Part shown: one piece after another, positions 6,862-11,959 of the stretch | Layout: every line of letters begins with the position of its first letter | Position numbering within the stretch: position 1 is the stretch's first letter | Source of the DNA: a virus | Virus record (IMG/VR): IMGVR_UViG_2639762614_000001 | Coordinates: 1 to 42,697 of that record | DNA length: 42,697 bases | Direction: 5' to 3' (one strand) | Notes under the pieces: generated by a model | Told to the model about the DNA's origin: nothing | The model's input: the letters and a program-made list of their open reading frames with translations, nothing else | Database searches by the model: none | Position numbers and translations under genes: made by a program

Positions 6862-7344
6862 ATGGCGGCAGAAAACCACGGCCCAATGGGCCTTGATCGA
6901 AAAGAGATCGACGACAAGATCCTCGACGAACTGCACGACGGCCGGAACGTCCCGTCGAACCTCGCTGACGAACTCGATGTCTCTCGACAGTATATCAGCC
7001 AACGACTGAAGTTGCTCGAGGCAGCCGATCACGTCGAGAACGTCGGCCGTGGCGTCTACGAACTCGTGGACGATCCACGCCAATCTCAGGGGTACAACAA
7101 GATCGGCGAGGAGCTTGATTGGGAAAAGCTCGGCCCCGTTACTGTCTACGATGTGGACCGTCTCGAATATGTCCTCGAAGCGCTCCAGGAGAGCGAGGAG
7201 TTAGCTGAGGGTCTGACATGGGAGACCGAAGTAGTCGATACGCCAAAATACACCCTCACTATTGAGGAGGTCCTTGGCGGCTTAGGCGAATCAAAGCACC
7301 TCCTCGAGTACGCTAAAGGGCTGAAGGAGGATCTAAATGAGTAG
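6862..7344 (+). CDS. Winged helix-turn-helix transcriptional regulator (candidate repressor)
   Basis: ILDELHDGRNVPSNLADELDVSRQYISQRLKLLEAADHVENVGRGVYEL is a typical archaeal MarR/TrmB-like wHTH. Sits at a divergent promoter. Confidence 0.75.
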   Translation: MAAENHGPMGLDRKEIDDKILDELHDGRNVPSNLADELDVSRQYISQRLKLLEAADHVENVGRGVYELVDDPRQSQGYNKIGEELDWEKLGPVTVYDVDRLEYVLEALQESEELAEGLTWETEVVDTPKYTLTIEEVLGGLGESKHLLEYAKGLKEDLNE

Positions 7345-7401
7345 CGCCCAGCAGACCGACGGCGGCCGTGAGATCGACTGGCCTCGAGGGGTGAGCCAGT
7401 A

Positions 7402-7863
7402 ATGCCGCCAGAACCCCAGAACCATGCCACGCACTACTTCAAGCGGGGCTATGAGTTTTGGCGAGACACTCAGAATGATACAGAGGTCTCCGTTCACCAA
7501 CTGCTCGCGATCGCCGACGGGTTCGATCCGCATGAGGTGTTCGACCCCAACACCAACGTCCACCACACCACTGGATGTGGATTGGATAACCGCCCTGGCG
7601 TCCTCGATGTTCTATCTATCAGCGAGCACGTGAAGGAACATGACCAGCACAAGGACGCCCCTTGGCGAGATGGTCAGACGCTTCGGCGACTTCACTGGGG
7701 GGAGGGCCTTTCGACGCGCGAAATGGCCGATCGCCTTGGTTGTGGCCGTACTGCTATCCGGAGGTGGATGGACAGGAATGAAATCCCACGCCGGTCAAAG
7801 TCCGAAGCGGCGAAGAAGGCCGGAGTGGGTGGCTACGGAGGTGGTCTGACCAATGAGTCTTGA
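7402..7863 (+). CDS. HNH endonuclease with C-terminal HTH domain
   Basis: NVHHTTGCGLDNRPGVLDVLSISEHVKEH (H-N-H spacing), followed by STREMADRLGCGRTAIRRWM. Confidence 0.7.
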   Translation: MPPEPQNHATHYFKRGYEFWRDTQNDTEVSVHQLLAIADGFDPHEVFDPNTNVHHTTGCGLDNRPGVLDVLSISEHVKEHDQHKDAPWRDGQTLRRLHWGEGLSTREMADRLGCGRTAIRRWMDRNEIPRRSKSEAAKKAGVGGYGGGLTNES

Positions 7864-8488
7864 CGCGTGGCCCCGCGGACATGACCGAACGCCAGCTGAA
7901 GACCGCGAGCCTTACCCGGGCGATCTCTCACCCACGCGCAAGGAGTCGTTCCAGAGCGTCGTCGACGAGCTCGAGAAGTGGGAAGCCACCGAGGGCAGCG
8001 TCCGGATCGAGACGGCCTCCCAGCACTACGTCGACCGGCCGAACATCCCACATCAGCACGACAAGCCCGATGACGTCGGCGTCGCGGCGTACTTCCGACG
8101 CGAGGGCGAGGCCGCCGACGAGGAGTTCGGCGTCTCCTGTGACTGCTGGGAGACCCAACGCGAGAACGCCCGCGCGATCGCACTCTGGGCCCGCCGGCAG
8201 CGCCTGGCCGAACGGTGTGGGGTCCAGACGGCAGCCGATACCGTCGAGACCGCGCGGCTGCCCCCAGCTGACGAAGAGGCGATTGCGGCGCCGCCGGCTT
8301 CGAGCAGTGATGGTCTCGACGAGGAAGCGCACGAGATCCTCGGCGTTGCACCGGACGCTCCTGACGACGTCGTCGAAGCGGTCGCCCGGCGACTGTCGGC
8401 GAACGTCCATCCCGACAGCGACGATCCCGACGTCGGCGAGTACAAGAAGATTCAACGGGCGAAAGACACGATGCTCAGCGATGACTGA
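7853..8488 (+). CDS. J-domain (DnaJ-like) protein with an unknown N-terminal domain
   Basis: The C-terminus HEILGVAPDAPDDVVEAVARRLSANVHPDSDDPDVGEYKKIQRAKDTMLSD matches the J-domain consensus, including the HPD tripeptide. Confidence 0.75.
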   Translation: MSLDAWPRGHDRTPAEDREPYPGDLSPTRKESFQSVVDELEKWEATEGSVRIETASQHYVDRPNIPHQHDKPDDVGVAAYFRREGEAADEEFGVSCDCWETQRENARAIALWARRQRLAERCGVQTAADTVETARLPPADEEAIAAPPASSSDGLDEEAHEILGVAPDAPDDVVEAVARRLSANVHPDSDDPDVGEYKKIQRAKDTMLSDD

Positions 8489-8583
8489 GGGCGGGATCGA
8501 GGTTGTCGAGCAGCAAAAGCGTTGAAGCGATTGCGACAAACGAGTCAGCCTGATTTATTTATCCCCGAACAGAGATCAGGTCT

Positions 8584-8988
8584 ATGTACAGACAGGCAAT
8601 TCATTTCGGAACTATAATAGACAGAATTGAATCCTATCACGAGAATTCAGATTATGAGGACGACATCACGACGGGCGTCGGCAAACACCTCTTTGCTGTA
8701 TGTGACTCGCTAAAACGGGGAGTAAACACGTCTGGGCAAGCTGATGACTGTTATTTCTATATCAACACCGAGTTTTTCGAAGAGGTAATTGCCGAATTGG
8801 AGGAACAGCCACCACACAATCGCGGAATAGTCGTTCAACCAGAACAGTACTTTGGCCGCCCAGTTCGACCGAACGAAACGATGCCGAAAAACAGGCTACT
8901 TCTGACATCCCCCGATGCTGTTACACTTGGCGGAAAGGTGGTCGATCCAAACCATATCGGACTGGGGACAGTACTGCTTGACAGCTAA
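8584..8988 (+). CDS. Hypothetical protein (134 aa) in an AT-richer segment
   Basis: ATG 8584 is preceded by the TATA-like atttattta (8553-8561) inside a 6-bp inverted repeat cctgat/atcagg. The promoter resembles those of the small paralog family downstream. Confidence 0.6.
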   Translation: MYRQAIHFGTIIDRIESYHENSDYEDDITTGVGKHLFAVCDSLKRGVNTSGQADDCYFYINTEFFEEVIAELEEQPPHNRGIVVQPEQYFGRPVRPNETMPKNRLLLTSPDAVTLGGKVVDPNHIGLGTVLLDS

Positions 8989-8998
8989 CCCTGCCGAG

Positions 8999-9030
8999 TT
9001 TTATCCCGGAAGCCGCGGCCAACGCCGGCG
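8999..9030 (+). promoter_or_regulatory. Promoter/5' element of paralog A1 (TATA-like ttttatcc plus the conserved 21 nt aagccgcggccaacgccggcg)
   Basis: A 24-nt string including the ATG (9010-9033) is identical at 9489-9512 and 10636-10659. TATA-to-ATG distance is ~27 nt in all three copies. Confidence 0.55.
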
Positions 9031-9249
9031 ATGTCTCTCACCGATCGACAGGAGGGCCTCCTGATCGCTGTCGCACTAATCGAGTTCTTAGTCCACTACG
9101 AGAGCGCTGATCTCGAACTCTCGAGCAAAGCGTGGCAGCTGGCCGCCGACCGCCTCGTCGATCACGATGTCGGGCCGCGGAAGGCCCGCAACCAGAACCA
9201 GTTATCGTTCGGCAAATGGGCCAACAAATTGATACGATACCAATTCTGA
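9031..9249 (+). CDS. Small helical protein, paralog A1 (72 aa)
   Basis: MSLTDRQEGLLIAVALIEFLVHYESADLELSSKAWQLAADRLVDHDV is paralogous to 10657..10851. Confidence 0.65.
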   Translation: MSLTDRQEGLLIAVALIEFLVHYESADLELSSKAWQLAADRLVDHDVGPRKARNQNQLSFGKWANKLIRYQF

Positions 9250-9256
9250 GTAGCAA

Positions 9257-9445
9257 ATGGCGAGAGATGAGGATTCTGTCGGCACCCAACTGAATCCGAC
9301 TTCGAGGCATACTGCTCTCTCGCCGCCCTGAGATCGTTCATTGTCAATAGCCATATTGTCACCCGATCTCAGACCCGCTACCCACCGTTTGCCACTTCAT
9401 CAAATGGATGGGGGCTCCAACGCTGGCCTCTGGCCGGCGTTTCTT
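9257..9445 (+). ncRNA. R element copy 1: ~185-nt repeat with two conserved hairpins and a T-run (candidate structured 3'UTR or sRNA)
   Basis: Stem-loop 9328-9336/9364-9372 (9 bp). GC hairpin 9419-9428/9432-9441 (10 bp with one G-U, triloop), followed by tcttg. Homologous to 9682-9860 and 10252-10437. Confidence 0.4.
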
Positions 9446-9478
9446 GAACGACTAAACTCATCGTGATAGGTCCTACTG

Positions 9479-9509
9479 TTTATATACCAAGCCGCGGCCA
9501 ACGCCGGCG
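9479..9509 (+). promoter_or_regulatory. Promoter/5' element of paralog A2 (tttatata plus the conserved 21 nt)
   Basis: See 8999..9030. Confidence 0.5.
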
Positions 9510-9596
9510 ATGCCTCTCACCGATCGTCGCGAAGACCTCCTGATCGCCGTCGCCCAGGAAAAACCGGATTTGGATGAAAACGAGAGCGGCGAATAA
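9510..9596 (+). pseudogene. Truncated paralog A2 (28 codons: MPLTDRREDLLIAVAQEKPDLDENESGE)
   Basis: The first 15 codons align with A1/A3, then the sequence diverges and stops early. Confidence 0.5.
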
Positions 9597-9681
9597 TCGA
9601 TCCGTGATTAGCCATTCCGACCGGTAACGGCCCTGGATCCCCACTATGGGGCCAGTAGAGTTAATTGGTTACAGTACTGAA

Positions 9682-9860
9682 ATGCTGGCGACGAGAGATG
9701 GGGGGATCCGGTCGAACACCCATTCCCAGATCCGCTCCGAGACATACCTCTCGTCACTCCTGAGATCGGTCTACCGAACGCCACCGGCCCCCGATTTCAG
9801 ACCCCACCCGACCACTTGAGGGCTGGGGGTTCCGACGTCGGCCTCTGGCCGGCGCTTCTT
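9682..9860 (+). ncRNA. R element copy 2
   Basis: Stem-loop 9760-9769/9791-9800 (10 bp with one G-U). GC hairpin 9836-9843/9847-9854, followed by cttctt. Confidence 0.4.
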
Positions 9861-10251
9861 GAGAGAATTGAAATGAAATGTCCGGCATGGTTAGGGTGCT
9901 ACGACATCTGCCGGACACCACGGTAAGATGCCAACAGGCGCTGATTGGATCGATCGGGGTGTCACGCACAGCGGAGTTGCGCGACAACGAAGATGTTCGG
10001 CTTGACTATTATCAACTTCCACCCGATTCCCAATCACTCGAAATCGTCTGTCCGCTTGAATAAGGGACCTCATGGATACTGCTGTGATCATCGATCGACA
10101 GACGGCATAAAATGCGGAAGTCTGGTGACGGACTGCGCTCCACGACGGACGAGACGTGGAGGCGTTCCGCTATATTCTGAACATAGCATTATTGGTTGGG
10201 TTCATTCTCAGATGGCCAATACATTCATGCGATGAGATAACTATGGGTCAG

Positions 10252-10437
10252 ATGGCGGGGGAAGGTTCAGTCATTCAACTAAGCCCGCCTGTCCACCACG
10301 ACAGGCCAATCCTGCCTTCGAGATCGTCCCAACGAGGGGTCAATAACCATATTGCCACACACGATCTCGGACCCACCCAGATCGGACACCCACCATCAGG
10401 TTGGGAAGCTTCAACGCTGGCCACTGGCCGGCGTTTT
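10252..10437 (+). ncRNA. R element copy 3
   Basis: Stem-loop 10317-10326/10362-10371 (10 bp, one G-U, one compensatory C:G replacing U:A of copy 1). GC hairpin 10413-10422/10426-10435, followed by tt. A degenerate promoter-like ctatattctgaa lies at ~10170. Confidence 0.4.
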
Positions 10438-10625
10438 CTCTCGAGAGAACCAAATCACGTTGGGGACACCGATATAATCCTGACGGCGCTACGTAGGAGT
10501 ACGGCAGGGTTCCACATCATCACCTGCGCCAGACACGCATACTGCCCTGCCAGCGTACCCCCCTTCATAACCACCAAATCTTTCCTTTTATCGAGCGACC
10601 ACGTCCAGTAGCGCTGAGCCTGATG

Positions 10626-10656
10626 TTTATATTCGAAGCCGCGGCCAACGCCGGCG
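10626..10656 (+). promoter_or_regulatory. Promoter/5' element of paralog A3 (tttatatt plus the conserved 21 nt)
   Basis: See 8999..9030. Confidence 0.5.
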
Positions 10657-10851
10657 ATGCTCACCGATCGACAAGAAGATTTCCTGGTCGCCGTCGCACT
10701 GACCGAGTTCTCGGTTCACTACGAACGTGCTGAGCCTGAACTCTCGGAAGAAGCCTGGCAGCTGGCCGCTGATCGCCTCGTTGATCGCGACGTCGAGCCT
10801 TCCGAGGCCATCGCGGAACTCGAAATCGACAGCCGAGATCACGCTACTTGA
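10657..10851 (+). CDS. Small helical protein, paralog A3 (64 aa)
   Basis: MLTDRQEDFLVAVALTEFSVHYERAEPELSEEAWQLAADRLVDRDV. Its 3' end overlaps the convergent gene 10839..11321 by 13 nt. Confidence 0.65.
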   Translation: MLTDRQEDFLVAVALTEFSVHYERAEPELSEEAWQLAADRLVDRDVEPSEAIAELEIDSRDHAT

Positions 10852-11321
10852 AAACCCTTGTACTTGTCGCGAAAATGGGTGAGCTGATGCGCTCTGTCGA
10901 TCTTTTCCTGTGCGCGTTCTTTATTTTGCTTGATCCTGGACATCGGTTGCTCCAGGAAGGATTCAAGCATGGAATCATCTAACCGGTCAGAGTGAACATA
11001 CGCTTCTGCCTCATCCTCACTCAGCAGGCCCTCCTCAGTTAACTTTTCCACCCTCTTACCGGACGTATTCTCCTCCCGCAAAATACCGATCGTCACCTCT
11101 GCTTTTTCAAATATTGCTTCCGCGGTTTCTAACTCCCCCTTGAGTTCAGCCTCGGGTGTATCGAATACCGTTTCGGCATCCTGTTTGGGTGGATCCATGA
11201 TTGTGAAATAGACGTATGCTTTCGCTTGATCTTCGTCATGGAGTCTGATTTGAAATAACTCGTCAGCGATATCGTTCGGATCTGAGTTGCGAACGCTCCC
11301 TTTGTCCATACCCAGACACAT
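10839..11321 (-). CDS. Hypothetical protein (160 aa; alternative start ATG 11309)
   Basis: Long ORF in an AT-richer segment, acidic with coiled-coil-like composition. The TATA-like aaatatttt upstream fits a leaderless start at 11309. Confidence 0.6.
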   Translation of the reverse strand: MCLGMDKGSVRNSDPNDIADELFQIRLHDEDQAKAYVYFTIMDPPKQDAETVFDTPEAELKGELETAEAIFEKAEVTIGILREENTSGKRVEKLTEEGLLSEDEAEAYVHSDRLDDSMLESFLEQPMSRIKQNKERAQEKIDRAHQLTHFRDKYKGFQVA

Positions 11322-11416
11322 GCAGCGTATGACAAAATATTTGCTGAGATCACCGGTTCGGCCGAGAGGCCATAGCCGACGGAACTCTTATCACGAAACC
11401 ATCCAATCGAGGAGAC

Positions 11417-11959
11417 ATGAACCGGCGGAAGCTCTTGCTTGGAAGTGGTGCTGCATTCTCGACGATCCTCGCCGGCTGCTCGAGCGATGAGACCAGCGAC
11501 GGAAACGGGAATGGAAACGGCCAGACCGAGTCCACTGACGACTCCGGGAATGGCGGCAGTGCCGAGGCCGACTTCGCAGTCACCTACAACTGGAAACGGT
11601 ACGATCGGTTCACTACGCCAGAGAACGAAGACGTCTACTACAAGTCTGATGACGAGACGCAGTACGTCGGCGCCCAACTCCAGGCAACGAACCAGACCGA
11701 CGAAGAACTCTCGCTCGGCGAGTTCGAACTCTCGGTCCTCGTCGGCGGAGATACCGACGATGTCTCGATCCACGCCCAGAGTAAGACCGAGCCGCTCGAG
11801 GCGATCGGCGCTGGCGAGACCGCCGAGACGTGGCTTTTCTTCACAGTGCCCCCCGAGGCTGAGGATATCGAGTTTGGGACCACGCAGTGGACCGAGCACT
11901 CGTTCGATCTGACCCACGACGAAGATCTCGAGATCGCGCTCGAGGAGTACGAGGAGTGA
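11417..11959 (+). CDS. Secreted Tat-lipoprotein with a DUF4352-like Ig-fold domain
   Basis: MNRRKLLLGSGAAFSTILAGCSS has a twin-arginine motif and a lipobox Cys. This is followed by an acidic GNGNG linker and a beta-rich domain ending ...AETWLFFTVPPEAEDIEF. Confidence 0.75.
   Translation: MNRRKLLLGSGAAFSTILAGCSSDETSDGNGNGNGQTESTDDSGNGGSAEADFAVTYNWKRYDRFTTPENEDVYYKSDDETQYVGAQLQATNQTDEELSLGEFELSVLVGGDTDDVSIHAQSKTEPLEAIGAGETAETWLFFTVPPEAEDIEFGTTQWTEHSFDLTHDEDLEIALEEYEE

Follow-up and report, generated by a model that had tools for sequence, protein, structure and literature searches.

The window, that is, the whole analysed stretch of viral DNA of 42,697 nucleotides, carries three copies of a previously undescribed family of structured RNA elements with a length of approximately 195 nt, designated here as R. 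The element comprises six helices: P1 encloses P1a, P2 encloses P2b, and P3 and P4 follow. This six-helix structure is conserved in the family, four of the helices are kept by compensatory substitutions, and this is true of the plus strand only. R is very likely a functional structured RNA. A search of the whole window against Rfam 15 gave no matches at gathering thresholds, and a search of positions 8900-10700 at E-values up to 10 gave only spurious hits to snoZ185 (20.9 bits, threshold 50) and SgrS (14.2 bits, threshold 37); no tRNA or tmRNA is present. A literature search covering the HJTV viruses, Natrinema sRNAs, the motif sequence, and haloarchaeal type III toxin–antitoxin (TA) systems, among other topics, found nothing on R.

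Analysis of every window position using nhmmer and a covariance model detected exactly three copies of R, all on the plus strand (Table 1); the best further match to the covariance model reached 14 bits. The copies lie essentially where the first-pass annotation, made from the sequence alone, had placed three homologous elements with two conserved hairpins. Both hairpins (P2 and P4) are present, but the element is larger and contains four more helices (P1, P1a, P2b, and P3); the 5' structural half of R and its tight linkage to a downstream small gene, A1, had been missed. The pairings quoted at that stage can be read in the sequence. In copy 1, P2 is formed by CUGAGAUCG and CGAUCUCAG; in copy 3, the pair c10319:g10369 stands in place of U:A, while in copy 2, g9764:t9796 is a G·U pair and g9769:c9791 an additional pair. 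P4 reads AACGCUGGCC-UCU-GGCCGGCGUU, with one U·G pair, and is followed by tails of the UUUCU type. In addition, P1 of copy 2 shows a compensatory change from G:C to A:U. The only direct repeats found were the three R copies, approximately 415-580 nt apart, and the copies of the A1 promoter and gene. The region of about 1.3 kb had been considered devoid of believable ORFs, which is not entirely the case: it holds a 28-codon chimeric remnant (Table 1) and a 61-codon ORF (9878-10063), which had no match in the two libraries tried, PADLOC and PHROGs.

Table 1. Copies of R and accompanying A1-type sequences in the window. The strands of a helix are separated by a slash; fold z is relative to dinucleotide shuffles; the BRE/TATA-like boxes and promoters are predicted.
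Feature	Positions	Strand	Basis
A1 promoter: TTTTAT box (8999-9004), then conserved AAGCCGCGGCCAACGCCGGCG up to the ATG	8999-9030	+	sequence
A1 gene, small helical protein, 72 aa	9031-9249	+	ORF list
R copy 1, BRE/TATA-like box GGCCAACAAATTGAT	9219-9233	+	stacked upstream regions of 41 copies
R copy 1	9255-9451	+	covariance model, 153 bits; fold z = -5.7
R copy 1, P1; P1a	9259-9265/9318-9324; 9271-9275/9293-9297	+	alignment of copies
R copy 1, P2; P2b	9328-9336/9364-9372; 9343-9348/9355-9360	+	alignment of copies
R copy 1, P3; P4, then UUUCUU	9381-9388/9404-9412; 9419-9428/9432-9441	+	alignment of copies
A1-type promoter TTTATATA (9479-9486) and 28-codon chimeric ORF (9510-9596)	9479-9596	+	tblastn to A1, 9510-9597
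R copy 2, BRE/TATA-like box GGCCAGTAGAGTTAAT	9650-9665	+	same fixed distance from P1
R copy 2	9686-9866	+	covariance model, 112 bits; fold z = -2.1
R copy 2, P1 (GACGAGA/UCUCGUC); P1a	9690-9696/9749-9755; 9704-9708/9729-9733	+	
R copy 2, P2; P2b absent	9760-9769/9791-9800	+	
R copy 2, P3; P4, then CUUCUU	~9802-9809/9820-9828; 9836-9843/9847-9854	+	
R copy 3, BRE/TATA-like box GGCCAATACATTCATG	10214-10229	+	stacked upstream regions
R copy 3	10250-10445	+	covariance model, 128 bits; fold z = -3.9
R copy 3, P1, with two G·U pairs	10254-10260/10310-10316	+	
R copy 3, P2; P2b	10318-10326/10362-10370; 10339-10344/10351-10356	+	
R copy 3, P3; P4, then UUUUCU	10372-10379/10398-10406; 10413-10422/10426-10435	+	
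A1-type promoter TTTATATT (10626-10633), conserved GC-rich stretch, and third A1 paralogue, 64 aa (10657-10851)	10626-10851	+	repeat families D1 and D2

For comparison, 41 distinct copies of R were aligned, originating from the virus HJTV-4, from Natrinema, Haloterrigena, and Natronorubrum replicons, from metagenomes, and from the window. The family spans at least three genera, and a Natrialbaceae genome carries many diverged copies, which are mutually only ~55-70% identical. The first-pass annotation had regarded R as a family of viral RNAs, but it is not specifically viral: only the copies of the window and of HJTV-4 are found in viruses, and the others, which form the majority, occur on plasmids and chromosomes of the three genera named above. 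Pattern scans and covariance-model searches of IMG/VR detected R only on one HJTV-4-like contig; the 80 matches of the P4 15-mer in that database correspond to chance in GC-rich DNA.

In the 41-copy alignment, standard pairs accounted for 90.9% of the pair cells, as compared with 29-49% when the partners were slid. Changes on both sides were noted at 25 of the 42 pairs, and none of 500 shuffles reached any of the five measures used (the shuffling was also run on a 35-copy version of the alignment). Model-based alignments are biased towards the modelled structure; the stems quoted in the first-pass annotation, P2 and P4, covary in these and also in a structure-blind MAFFT alignment, with one P2 pair found as CG in 8, UA in 7, and UG in 3 copies. 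As for the remaining helices, P1a and P3 are hairpins of unlike sequence in nearly all copies. The P2b hairpin is otherwise invariant and is missing from copy 2 and from the Haloterrigena copies; therefore, it is not universally essential. A pseudoknot between the 5' strand of P2b (GUCAA) and the P3 loop (UUGAC) was considered and rejected, since it can form in some copies only and the Haloterrigena copies keep the loop without P2b.

The plus-strand assignment had been argued from wobble pairs, which would become A·C mismatches on the other strand. At the level of the family this argument holds: G·U exceeds A·C by 112:37 overall and by 75:9 in P1, P2, and P4 together, and the plus strand is therefore favoured. 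It does not hold for single-sequence energies, which differ little between the two strands of copies 1 and 3. No conserved ORF was found in the family. The longest open frames change phase and strand between copies, the frame starting from the NUG at the predicted 5' end extends over 3 to 70 codons depending on the copy, and the alignment contains indels of 1, 2, and 7 nt, which are not multiples of three. Since frames and indels are inconsistent between copies, R was rejected as a protein-coding gene. The initial description of a plus-strand-specific, non-coding, structured family with compensatory and G·U changes and with a terminal hairpin and U-run was borne out.

Candidate transcription signals were identified by stacking the upstream regions of the 41 copies without gaps at the start of P1. 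A BRE/TATA-like consensus, gGCCAAtAg..TtAT, is located at the fixed positions -40 to -26 from P1, and the spacer between this box and P1 is not conserved. The box agrees with the haloarchaeal TTWT TATA motif (PMC4983044). The box of copy 2 is alone in the window in matching the family box at three or fewer mismatches, against a chance expectation of 0.03. For copy 3, a promoter-like box had been suggested at ~10170; the family-conserved box is found downstream of it (Table 1). At the other end of the element, T3-6 comes directly after P4 in 37 of the 41 copies; these runs are short (U3 and then C in 23 copies), and P4 was not flagged in a scan for bacterial-type terminators. Judged by sequence, R has the parts expected of an archaeal sRNA unit, in which a BRE/TATA element precedes the 5' end by ~26-30 nt and the RNA ends in oligo-U; both predicted transcript ends of R are derived from these motifs. 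Copy 1 had been described as the 3' UTR of A1. The family, however, has its own box at a fixed upstream distance, and since this box in copy 1 lies within the 3' end of the A1 ORF, with the C-terminal tail of A1 running through it, independent transcription is at least as likely. In general, R is probably an independent transcription unit.

The A1 gene preceding copy 1 has homologues (n = 23), mostly 58-67 aa in length, from Natrinema, Haloterrigena, and Halostagnicola. The AlphaFold model of A1 contains three helices (pLDDT 78.7). Foldseek gave no significant PDB match for this model (best E-value 4), and a PDB profile search was also negative; no matches were found in Pfam, NCBIfam, PADLOC, or PHROGs, and no RNA-binding or nuclease fold was recognisable. 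The geometry of the A1 promoter is that of a leaderless mRNA, and the same TATA-to-ATG layout was noted in ~20 A1 copies elsewhere; PMC4983044 describes the layout of haloarchaeal promoters and how often mRNAs are leaderless. The 28-codon ORF between copies 1 and 2 is chimeric: its N-terminus is A1-like, and its C-terminus (...AQEKPDLDENESGE) resembles the tail (...AQEKRDLDEDDSDESADE) of B1, a small zinc-finger protein whose gene is found upstream of R in other loci.

An A1 start is located 34-70 nt downstream of R on the same strand in 26 of the 41 copies (~63%), mostly at 34-41 nt, and within ~420 nt in 31 copies; 9-10 copies have no A1 nearby. In a sample centred on A1 (10 distinct loci), R was directly upstream in three, nearby in two, and absent in five. 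A1 thus occurs without R as well, and its own promoter is then kept. Where the two adjoin, R and A1 are separated by the hairpin and U-run, and the A1 TATA box, at most ~10 nt past the predicted R terminator, is at leaderless distance from the start codon.

We propose that R is an independently transcribed structured sRNA, inherited with A1, that may act in trans through a protein partner. The conserved sequence geometry suggests that each copy is its own transcription unit: the box at -40 to -26 would place the start of R at a conserved purine or NUG just 5' of P1, and the GC-rich P4 hairpin with U3-6 would form the 3' end. Synteny suggests that R and A1 are inherited as a two-gene cassette, in which A1 would encode, in a leaderless mRNA, a three-helix protein of ~60 aa. 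These cassettes may duplicate into arrays (R-A1-R-A1 or R-B1-R-A1), and two related temperate tailed viruses, that of the window and HJTV-4, would have acquired them. In the least certain step, R RNA would work in trans, either as a scaffold that binds protein or as a protein's partner, with contact sites in its invariant exposed parts, namely, the J1 strand (CCGAGACAU), the P2b hairpin (GUCAAUAGCCAUAUUGUC), and the P3 loop (UUGACACACCAC). The likeliest partners would be small proteins inherited together with R, such as A1, and the relationship would be antitoxin-like or one of sequestration; P4 may also shield the A1 promoter from read-through. Taken as a whole, with most of the weight on the first two steps, this explanation seems to us to have an even chance of being correct, while an RNA–protein partnership of R with A1-type proteins is put forward tentatively. 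Several of the observations above speak against it: the short U-runs and the negative terminator scan, the linkage of R and A1, which is incomplete from either side, the separate promoter of A1 and its lack of a recognisable RNA-binding or nuclease fold, the loss of P2b in some copies, and the bias of the model-based alignments. More speculatively, R-A1 and R-B1 could represent an unrecognised class of RNA–protein cassettes on haloarchaeal mobile elements, in which R and a helical or zinc-finger micro-protein of ~60 aa form a specific complex that serves in addiction, exclusion, or anti-defence. Co-evolution of their specificity would keep diverged paralogous pairs separate, and the cassettes of temperate viruses would stem from host plasmids.

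Among the other explanations, the one that survives best, although it is rather unlikely, regards R as a cis-acting 5' leader of A1 that resembles an attenuator or riboswitch: transcription would start at the R box, P4 and the U-run would be a regulated terminator, and read-through would yield a leadered A1 mRNA. In its favour, both lie on one strand, and the A1 ATG follows R at a tightly fixed 34-41 nt in ~20 loci. Moreover, AACGCCGGC, immediately in front of the A1 ATG, is complementary to the 3' arm of P4 (GCCGGCGUU), by which read-through RNA could mask the A1 start, and Haloferax has genes with both leaderless and long-leader transcripts (PMC4983044). However, a canonical TTTATATA box stands downstream of P4, at leaderless distance from the ATG, R-less A1 copies keep this promoter, and about one quarter of the R copies have no downstream A1. 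The motif CCAACGCYGGC occurs both in P4 and in the promoter-proximal sequence of A1, yet, according to a by-eye reading, the P4 variants do not track the promoter variants, and covariation between the two was rejected. R has no significant complementarity to the 5' coding region of A1 either: the energies of duplexes with the first 45 nt of the adjoining A1 mRNA were no better than those of shuffles (z from -2.4 to +0.9, mostly ~0). As a result, R was also dismissed as an antisense RNA of A1; a 7-nt match, GAGACAU/AUGUCUC, does not covary.

Quite improbable is the view that R is a structured 3' UTR, or a terminator or insulator, of the upstream gene (A1 for copy 1, B1 elsewhere), which would stabilise the mRNA and stop read-through into the next cassette. 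Copy 1 does begin 6 nt past the A1 stop codon, the element terminates in a hairpin and a U-run, and a small same-strand gene precedes several copies, namely B1 in five loci (L088, L089, L090, L092, and L114). Other copies have no same-strand gene upstream, as in the case of the first HJTV-4 copy, which follows a divergent gene, and of locus L084, where R follows minus-strand genes. The fixed box at -40 to -26 with its non-conserved spacer resembles a promoter, and a terminator needs far fewer than the six helices, covarying or conserved, that R has within 195 nt.

The fold could conceivably be adopted by single-stranded DNA and provide a strand-specific promoter or initiation signal when a plasmid enters the cell in single-stranded form. 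Such elements, Frpo and ssi, are strand-specific folds that recur in one orientation ahead of small early genes, close to genes of the ArdC type, where bacterial conjugative plasmids have their leading regions. By analogy, the fold of R is strand-specific (G·T is tolerated in DNA too), its copies are repeated in one orientation upstream of small genes, and ArdC-like or ImmA genes are close to several R loci of plasmids typed as MPF_T by PLSDB. Nevertheless, this reading is very improbable. Frpo and ssi are single long hairpins with the promoter inside the stem, whereas R has several separate helices with flanking promoter-like and terminator-like signals of its own. R is also found in tailed double-stranded DNA viruses and at chromosomal sites with ordinary neighbours, the genes downstream of it have normal double-stranded TATA promoters outside the fold, and single-stranded DNA transfer is not established for the replicons that bear it.

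Hardly more credible is the suggestion that R is a translated RNA, either a toxic RNA similar to CreT or the mRNA of a small peptide, in which a leaderless AUG, a rare arginine codon, and a stable structure would stall ribosomes or sequester a rare tRNA. CreT is a tRNA-sequestering haloarchaeal RNA toxin, paired within cas loci with creA, a degenerate mini-CRISPR; its mini-ORF has an efficient start codon and two minor codons in a row, and a stable stem-loop comes after it (PMC8501985). Like CreT, R is a haloarchaeal small RNA with a stable stem and a start codon soon before a rare arginine codon: NUG is present at the predicted 5' end in 35 of the 41 copies (AUG in 22), followed by GCG or ACG and then by AGG or AGA in ~33 of the 41 according to a by-eye count. 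However, in R a single AGG/AGA is found at codon 3 and G-rich codons come next; many copies have a weak start codon or none at all, and the fold is much larger. The rare codons belong to the 5' side of helix P1 and covary with the opposite strand of this helix, the ORF length varies as stated above, and no cas genes were found near R in 14 annotated neighbourhoods.

The possibility that R is non-functional, that is, recently duplicated intergenic DNA, decayed coding sequence, or chance similarity, could draw on the long open frames present in every copy (copy 3 lies within a 151-codon ORF), but it is already contradicted by the covariation counts: these copies of low identity, spread over several genera, keep their pairing by both-sided changes, and their open frames are consistent neither in phase nor in strand.

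With respect to the proposed sRNA with a protein partner, one of the closest known arrangements is that of type III TA systems (ToxIN, CptIN, and TenpIN). These likewise have an RNA gene, a hairpin terminator (a predicted one in the case of R), and a small protein gene in this order on one strand; they, too, are found on plasmids or prophages, and a genome may hold several diverged paralogues. In type III systems, however, the RNA consists of short tandem repeats processed by the toxin, while R is a single 195-nt multi-helix fold; no tandem array was detected in 8900-10900 by TRF. The type III toxin is co-transcribed from the RNA promoter, whereas A1 has a predicted TATA box of its own. The toxin is also an endoribonuclease of ~170 aa, and the ~60-aa, three-helix A1 has no match of the ToxN/AbiQ, CptN, or TenpN type in Pfam, NCBIfam, PADLOC, PHROGs, or PDB. 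Finally, the linkage of R and A1 is partial, unlike that in type III TA systems.

GOLLD, ROOL, and HEARO are Rfam families of covarying multi-helix RNAs that are enriched on prophages and plasmids and whose function was not known when they were found. R differs from them in its smaller size, its restriction to archaea (Natrialbaceae), its multiple copies, and its association with a small protein gene. To our knowledge, the intergenic sRNAs mapped in haloarchaea are mostly genome-specific and have no shared covarying multi-helix structure or multi-copy distribution. Similar to the sRNAs mapped by dRNA-seq in Haloferax volcanii, R would be a short transcript, in its case a predicted one, between protein genes, with a TTWT box ~26-29 nt before the predicted start (PMC4983044). 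Because no paper or Rfam family was found for R, no mapped haloarchaeal sRNA appears to match it.

R is supported by 41 copies, with four helices held by compensatory changes. We know of few lineage-specific structured RNA families with covariation support in archaea, and of fewer linked to viruses or plasmids. The multiple copies of R and its fixed position relative to the gene of an uncharacterised micro-protein offer a concrete, testable RNA–protein hypothesis. In the window, R is located in the accessory region of a temperate virus, and both its relative HJTV-4 and the host of the latter, Natrinema thermotolerans A29, are in culture. Even if its function is modest, the family can serve as the seed of a new covariance model, with which annotations of Natrialbaceae and haloviruses could be cleared of spurious ORFs, the frame over copy 3 being one example.

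Several other identities were considered and rejected. R is not a box C/D sRNA: the snoZ185 hit is below the threshold, UGAUGA precedes P1 in some copies only, and the length is 195 nt against ~50-70 nt. The geometry of UGAUGA...CUGA does not fit a K-turn or box C/D motif, because CUGA is base-paired inside P2. A MITE and an integron attC-like recombination site were rejected because terminal inverted repeats (the only inverted repeat found is the internal P1 stem), a single long hairpin, and near-identical copies are all lacking. The flanks of R lose similarity directly outside the box and P4 unless A1 or B1 comes next.

According to repeat finding, nhmmer, and a covariance model, three copies of the R element are present in the window where the first-pass annotation had placed them (Table); with the covariance model scored at each window position, the best further match reached 14 bits. 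Repeat finding additionally showed that the 3' hairpin shared by the copies occurs three times in the window, as does the promoter with the 5' coding region of A1, a gene family for helical proteins of ~60 aa. All base pairs quoted in that annotation agree with the window sequence, and the fold z-scores against dinucleotide shuffles were -5.7, -2.1, and -3.9 for copies 1, 2, and 3, respectively.

Table. Features of the R array and its surroundings in the window
Feature	Position	Strand	Remark
MarR-like HTH protein	6862-7344		upstream of R array
HTH_17-like HTH protein	7402-7863		upstream of R array
A1 TATA-to-ATG stretch	9010-9030
A1 C-terminal extension	9203-9249		GKWANKLIRYQF
R1 box	9219-9233	+	inside A1 ORF 3' end
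R copy 1	9255-9451	+	153 bits, nhmmer and covariance model
A1 TATA-to-ATG stretch	9490-9509
28-codon ORF	9510-9596		behind full A1-type promoter
Degenerate palindrome	9621-9640		ccggtaacggccctggatcc
R2 box	9650-9665	+	upstream stack
R copy 2	9686-9866	+	112 bits, nhmmer and covariance model
~110-nt segment	9937-10048		between R2 and R3
A1-like stretch	10085-10100		TGATCATCGATCGACA, repeat family D4
R3 box	10214-10229	+	upstream stack
R copy 3	10250-10445	+	128 bits, nhmmer and covariance model
A1 TATA-to-ATG stretch	10637-10656

Minimum-free-energy folds, obtained independently for the three window copies and two copies from the related tailed virus HJTV-4, were concordant in architecture. The two hairpins described earlier both exist (as P2 and P4), but the architecture is larger. 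Helix P1 (GGCGAGRG with CYCUCGCC) closes a domain with the variable hairpin P1a and the conserved single strand J1, CCGAGACAUAC. P2 encloses P2b, a small near-invariant hairpin, GUCAAUAGCCAUAUUGUC, that is missing from copy 2; the variable hairpin P3 (CCCACC... with ...GGAUGGG) frequently has the loop UUGACACACCAC, and P4 is followed by U3-6. A pseudoknot between P2b and P3 was rejected, the complementarity being found in some copies only. The P3 loop reads GAUCACCU in seven copies (L193, L216, L205, L206, L092, L087:3045-3247, and L094) and ACACACCAC in others; the former is also the sequence at the 3' end of 16S rRNA (anti-Shine-Dalgarno region), which may be a coincidence.

A covariance model built from 30 R copies with a 42-pair structure set by hand was used to align 41 distinct copies. 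Standard pairs made up 90.9% of pair cells in this model-based alignment, a kind that is biased towards the modelled structure, and fell to 29–49% when the 3' partners were slid by 1–3 columns. Changes on both sides were found in 25 of the 42 pairs (98 cells in total), so that the covariation first noted in the window holds among the collected homologues; none of 500 shuffles reached any of five pairing measures. The paired cells amounted to 97% in P1, 96% in P2, and 98.5% in P4, with both-side changes in 5 of 7, 4 of 7, and 4 of 8 pairs, respectively; for P1a and P3 the values were 78% (5 of 5 pairs) and 73% (6 of 8). P2b is paired in 97% of cells and, being almost invariant, is uninformative on covariation. 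A structure-blind MAFFT alignment showed covariation in P2 and P4 as well (one P2 pair occurring as CG 8, UA 7, and UG 3 times), and P1 pairing was seen in a 30-copy MAFFT alignment. Folded alone, P1a and P3 form hairpins of differing sequence in nearly all copies. Across all helices there were 112 G·U against 37 A·C, and in P1, P2, and P4 together 75 against 9, indicating that the fold is selected on the plus strand, in line with the strand argument of the first-pass annotation; single-sequence fold energies did not separate the two strands.

As for coding potential, some long open frame is present in each R copy, as expected at such GC content. The phase and strand of these frames vary among copies, the frame from the 5' NUG ranges from 3 to 70 codons, and between conserved blocks there are indels of 1, 2, and 7 nt; because of these inconsistencies, the 151-codon ORF that covers copy 3 is considered spurious. 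R is a non-coding element of several helices, conserved and strand-specific, under selection for pairing.

Transcription signals were analyzed in an ungapped stack of the 70 nt located 5' of P1 in all 41 copies. The stack contains a conserved box, gGCCAAtAg..TtAT, at -40..-26 from P1, an unconserved spacer 3' of it, and a conserved purine with UG immediately 5' of P1. At -29..-26 the copies read TTAT or TTAA, in agreement with TTWT, the TATA motif of haloarchaea (PMC4983044), and the Natronorubrum copy has the canonical TTTTTATATT at this position. For copy 3, the family-conserved box supersedes the one previously placed at ~10170. The T-run after P4 recurs as T3-6 in 37 of the 41 copies, and a scan for bacterial-type terminators left P4 unflagged. 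The predicted promoter and terminator of its own suggest that R is a ~195-nt sRNA. NUG is found at the 5' end in 35 of 41 copies, AUG in 22 (R family alignment A8; window 9256-9267 and 10251-10262). GCG or ACG comes next, and after it AGG or AGA in about 33 of 41. AGG/AGA is a rare arginine codon, and the NUG-AGG/AGA bases double as the 5' strand of P1. If the RNA starts at this NUG, R would resemble a leaderless mRNA to the ribosome.

An A1-family start lies 34–70 nt (mostly 34–41) past the R end on the same strand in 26 of the 41 copies and within about 420 nt in 31, and R-A1-R-A1 arrays occur at L087, L113, L109, and in the window. The linkage is incomplete: no A1 was found near 9–10 R copies, and among 10 distinct A1-centred loci R is directly upstream in 3, nearby in 2, and absent from 5. 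This synteny suggests that R and A1 are co-inherited. The junction follows a fixed pattern (GGCGUUUCU, ~8 nt, TTTATATA, AGCCGCGGCCAACGCCGGCG, ATG), a layout that points to a leaderless A1 mRNA with its TATA box abutting the R terminator. The 20 nt from TATA to ATG, AGCCGCGGCCAACGCCGGCG, are near-identical in the three window paralogues, and most A1 copies in other genomes conserve them too; they contain the palindromes GCCGCGGC and GCCGGC and resemble the 5' arm of P4, CCAACGCUGGCC. Such conservation is unusual for a TATA-to-start spacer, which suggests a putative repressor operator.

The 23 A1 homologues, mostly of 58–67 aa, belong to Natrinema, Haloterrigena, and Halostagnicola, and all are annotated as hypothetical. 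The AlphaFold model shows three helices (pLDDT 78.7); fold and profile searches against PDB gave no significant match, and Pfam, NCBIfam, PADLOC, and PHROGs gave zero matches. The window A1 has 72 aa, more than nearly all homologues, and its ORF seems to have extended into the adjoining R1 element, since the extra C-terminal residues are encoded by the R1 promoter-like box. In addition, the A1-like stretch between R2 and R3 has 88% identity to the 5' end of the coding sequence of the third A1 and may be a relic of another copy.

We tentatively propose that R RNA binds protein in trans, the exposed invariant segments J1, P2b, and the P3 loop being the possible contact sites. The micro-proteins inherited with R would be the most plausible partners, the relation being antitoxin-like or one of sequestration, and P4 might also shield the A1 promoter from read-through. 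That R serves A1 in cis, as a leader or attenuator, seems improbable, and a role as 3' UTR or insulator for the gene preceding it somewhat more so. The first-pass annotation had also read the wobble pairs as favouring RNA over DNA; G·T is tolerated in DNA too, so that the G·U excess alone does not tell RNA from ssDNA. The flanking promoter-like and terminator-like signals argue for RNA, and an ssDNA structure seems very improbable. Pairing of R with A1 mRNA was rejected after a negative test, and covariation of P4 with A1 promoter-proximal sequence on reading of the sequences. R departs from type III toxin-antitoxin systems, CreT, and box C/D RNAs in features that define them.

The window belongs to a tailed virus or provirus of haloarchaea. 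Its relative HJTV-4, which infects Natrinema thermotolerans A29, shares 92% identity with it in the terminase region and patchy 79% identity over 8500-11500. HJTV-4 carries two unannotated R copies upstream of the A1 homologue ORF44 and is the only R-bearing member of the phage collection; in IMG/VR, R was found on a single HJTV-4-like contig only. PLSDB plasmids contain R in 11–16 records, at up to 29 places, nearly all from Natrinema. Pattern scans gave 12 true matches (all Natrinema) and 9 chance matches in GTDB genomes and 3 true matches in metagenomes, and A1-centred loci revealed diverged copies in Haloterrigena and Natronorubrum. Neighbours in non-viral settings, chromosomal loci included, encode an MFS transporter, PAS kinase, ParA, Orc1/Cdc6, ArdC-like protein, and ImmA. 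Because many copies have such contexts, R is a Natrialbaceae family mainly of cellular replicons, captured by two related viruses; of the initial description as structured viral RNAs, the structure stands and the viral character does not. Neither Rfam families nor tRNAs were found across the 42.7 kb, no annotation underlies the R matches in phage and plasmid records (the plasmid gene table holds no RNA genes), and no paper on the element was found in the literature collection searched; we regard R as a new family among orphan structured sRNAs of mobile elements.

An unrelated viral contig, IMGVR_UViG_3300027819_000009 (74.7 kb; L056, L024, L082), has exact matches to the 15-mer GGCCTCTGGCCGGCG at six or more places, four of which fall within 4.7 kb; nhmmer detected no R there, so this repeat is a different family. 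Upstream of the R array, within 6862-8488, a 211-aa protein is J-domain-like at its C-terminus (DnaJ, E = 2e-5, slightly under the Pfam cut-off); if true, this would be uncommon cargo in an archaeal virus.

A second small-protein family, B1 (~55–71 aa), is encoded upstream of R at L088 (3596-3760), L090 (3592-3807), L092 (3580-3744), L089, and L114. Its cysteines and histidines are spaced C-x5-C-x12-H-x4-H, as in a C2H2 zinc finger, and its tail is acidic; PADLOC and PHROGs gave zero matches. The 28-codon ORF of the window is a chimera of the A1 N-terminus, MPLTDRREDLLIAVA, and a tail, QEKPDLDENESGE, resembling the B1 C-terminus, and was probably left behind by a deletion in an A1-B1-R array. 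In one subfamily, the palindrome GGTAAC-N8-GTTACC, degenerate in the window, is located past the B1 stop codon and ahead of the R box, about 70–50 nt upstream of P1 in L087, L090, and L092; it could be a B1 terminator or a protein-binding site. The ~110-nt segment between R2 and R3 has ~70% identity to L091 (4437-4538) and L114 (3983-4049), where the matching segments lie downstream of A1, and to L093 (3508-3576), upstream of an R copy. The tblastx signal was weak and came from both strands. The segment may represent a small gene or a further conserved non-coding piece.
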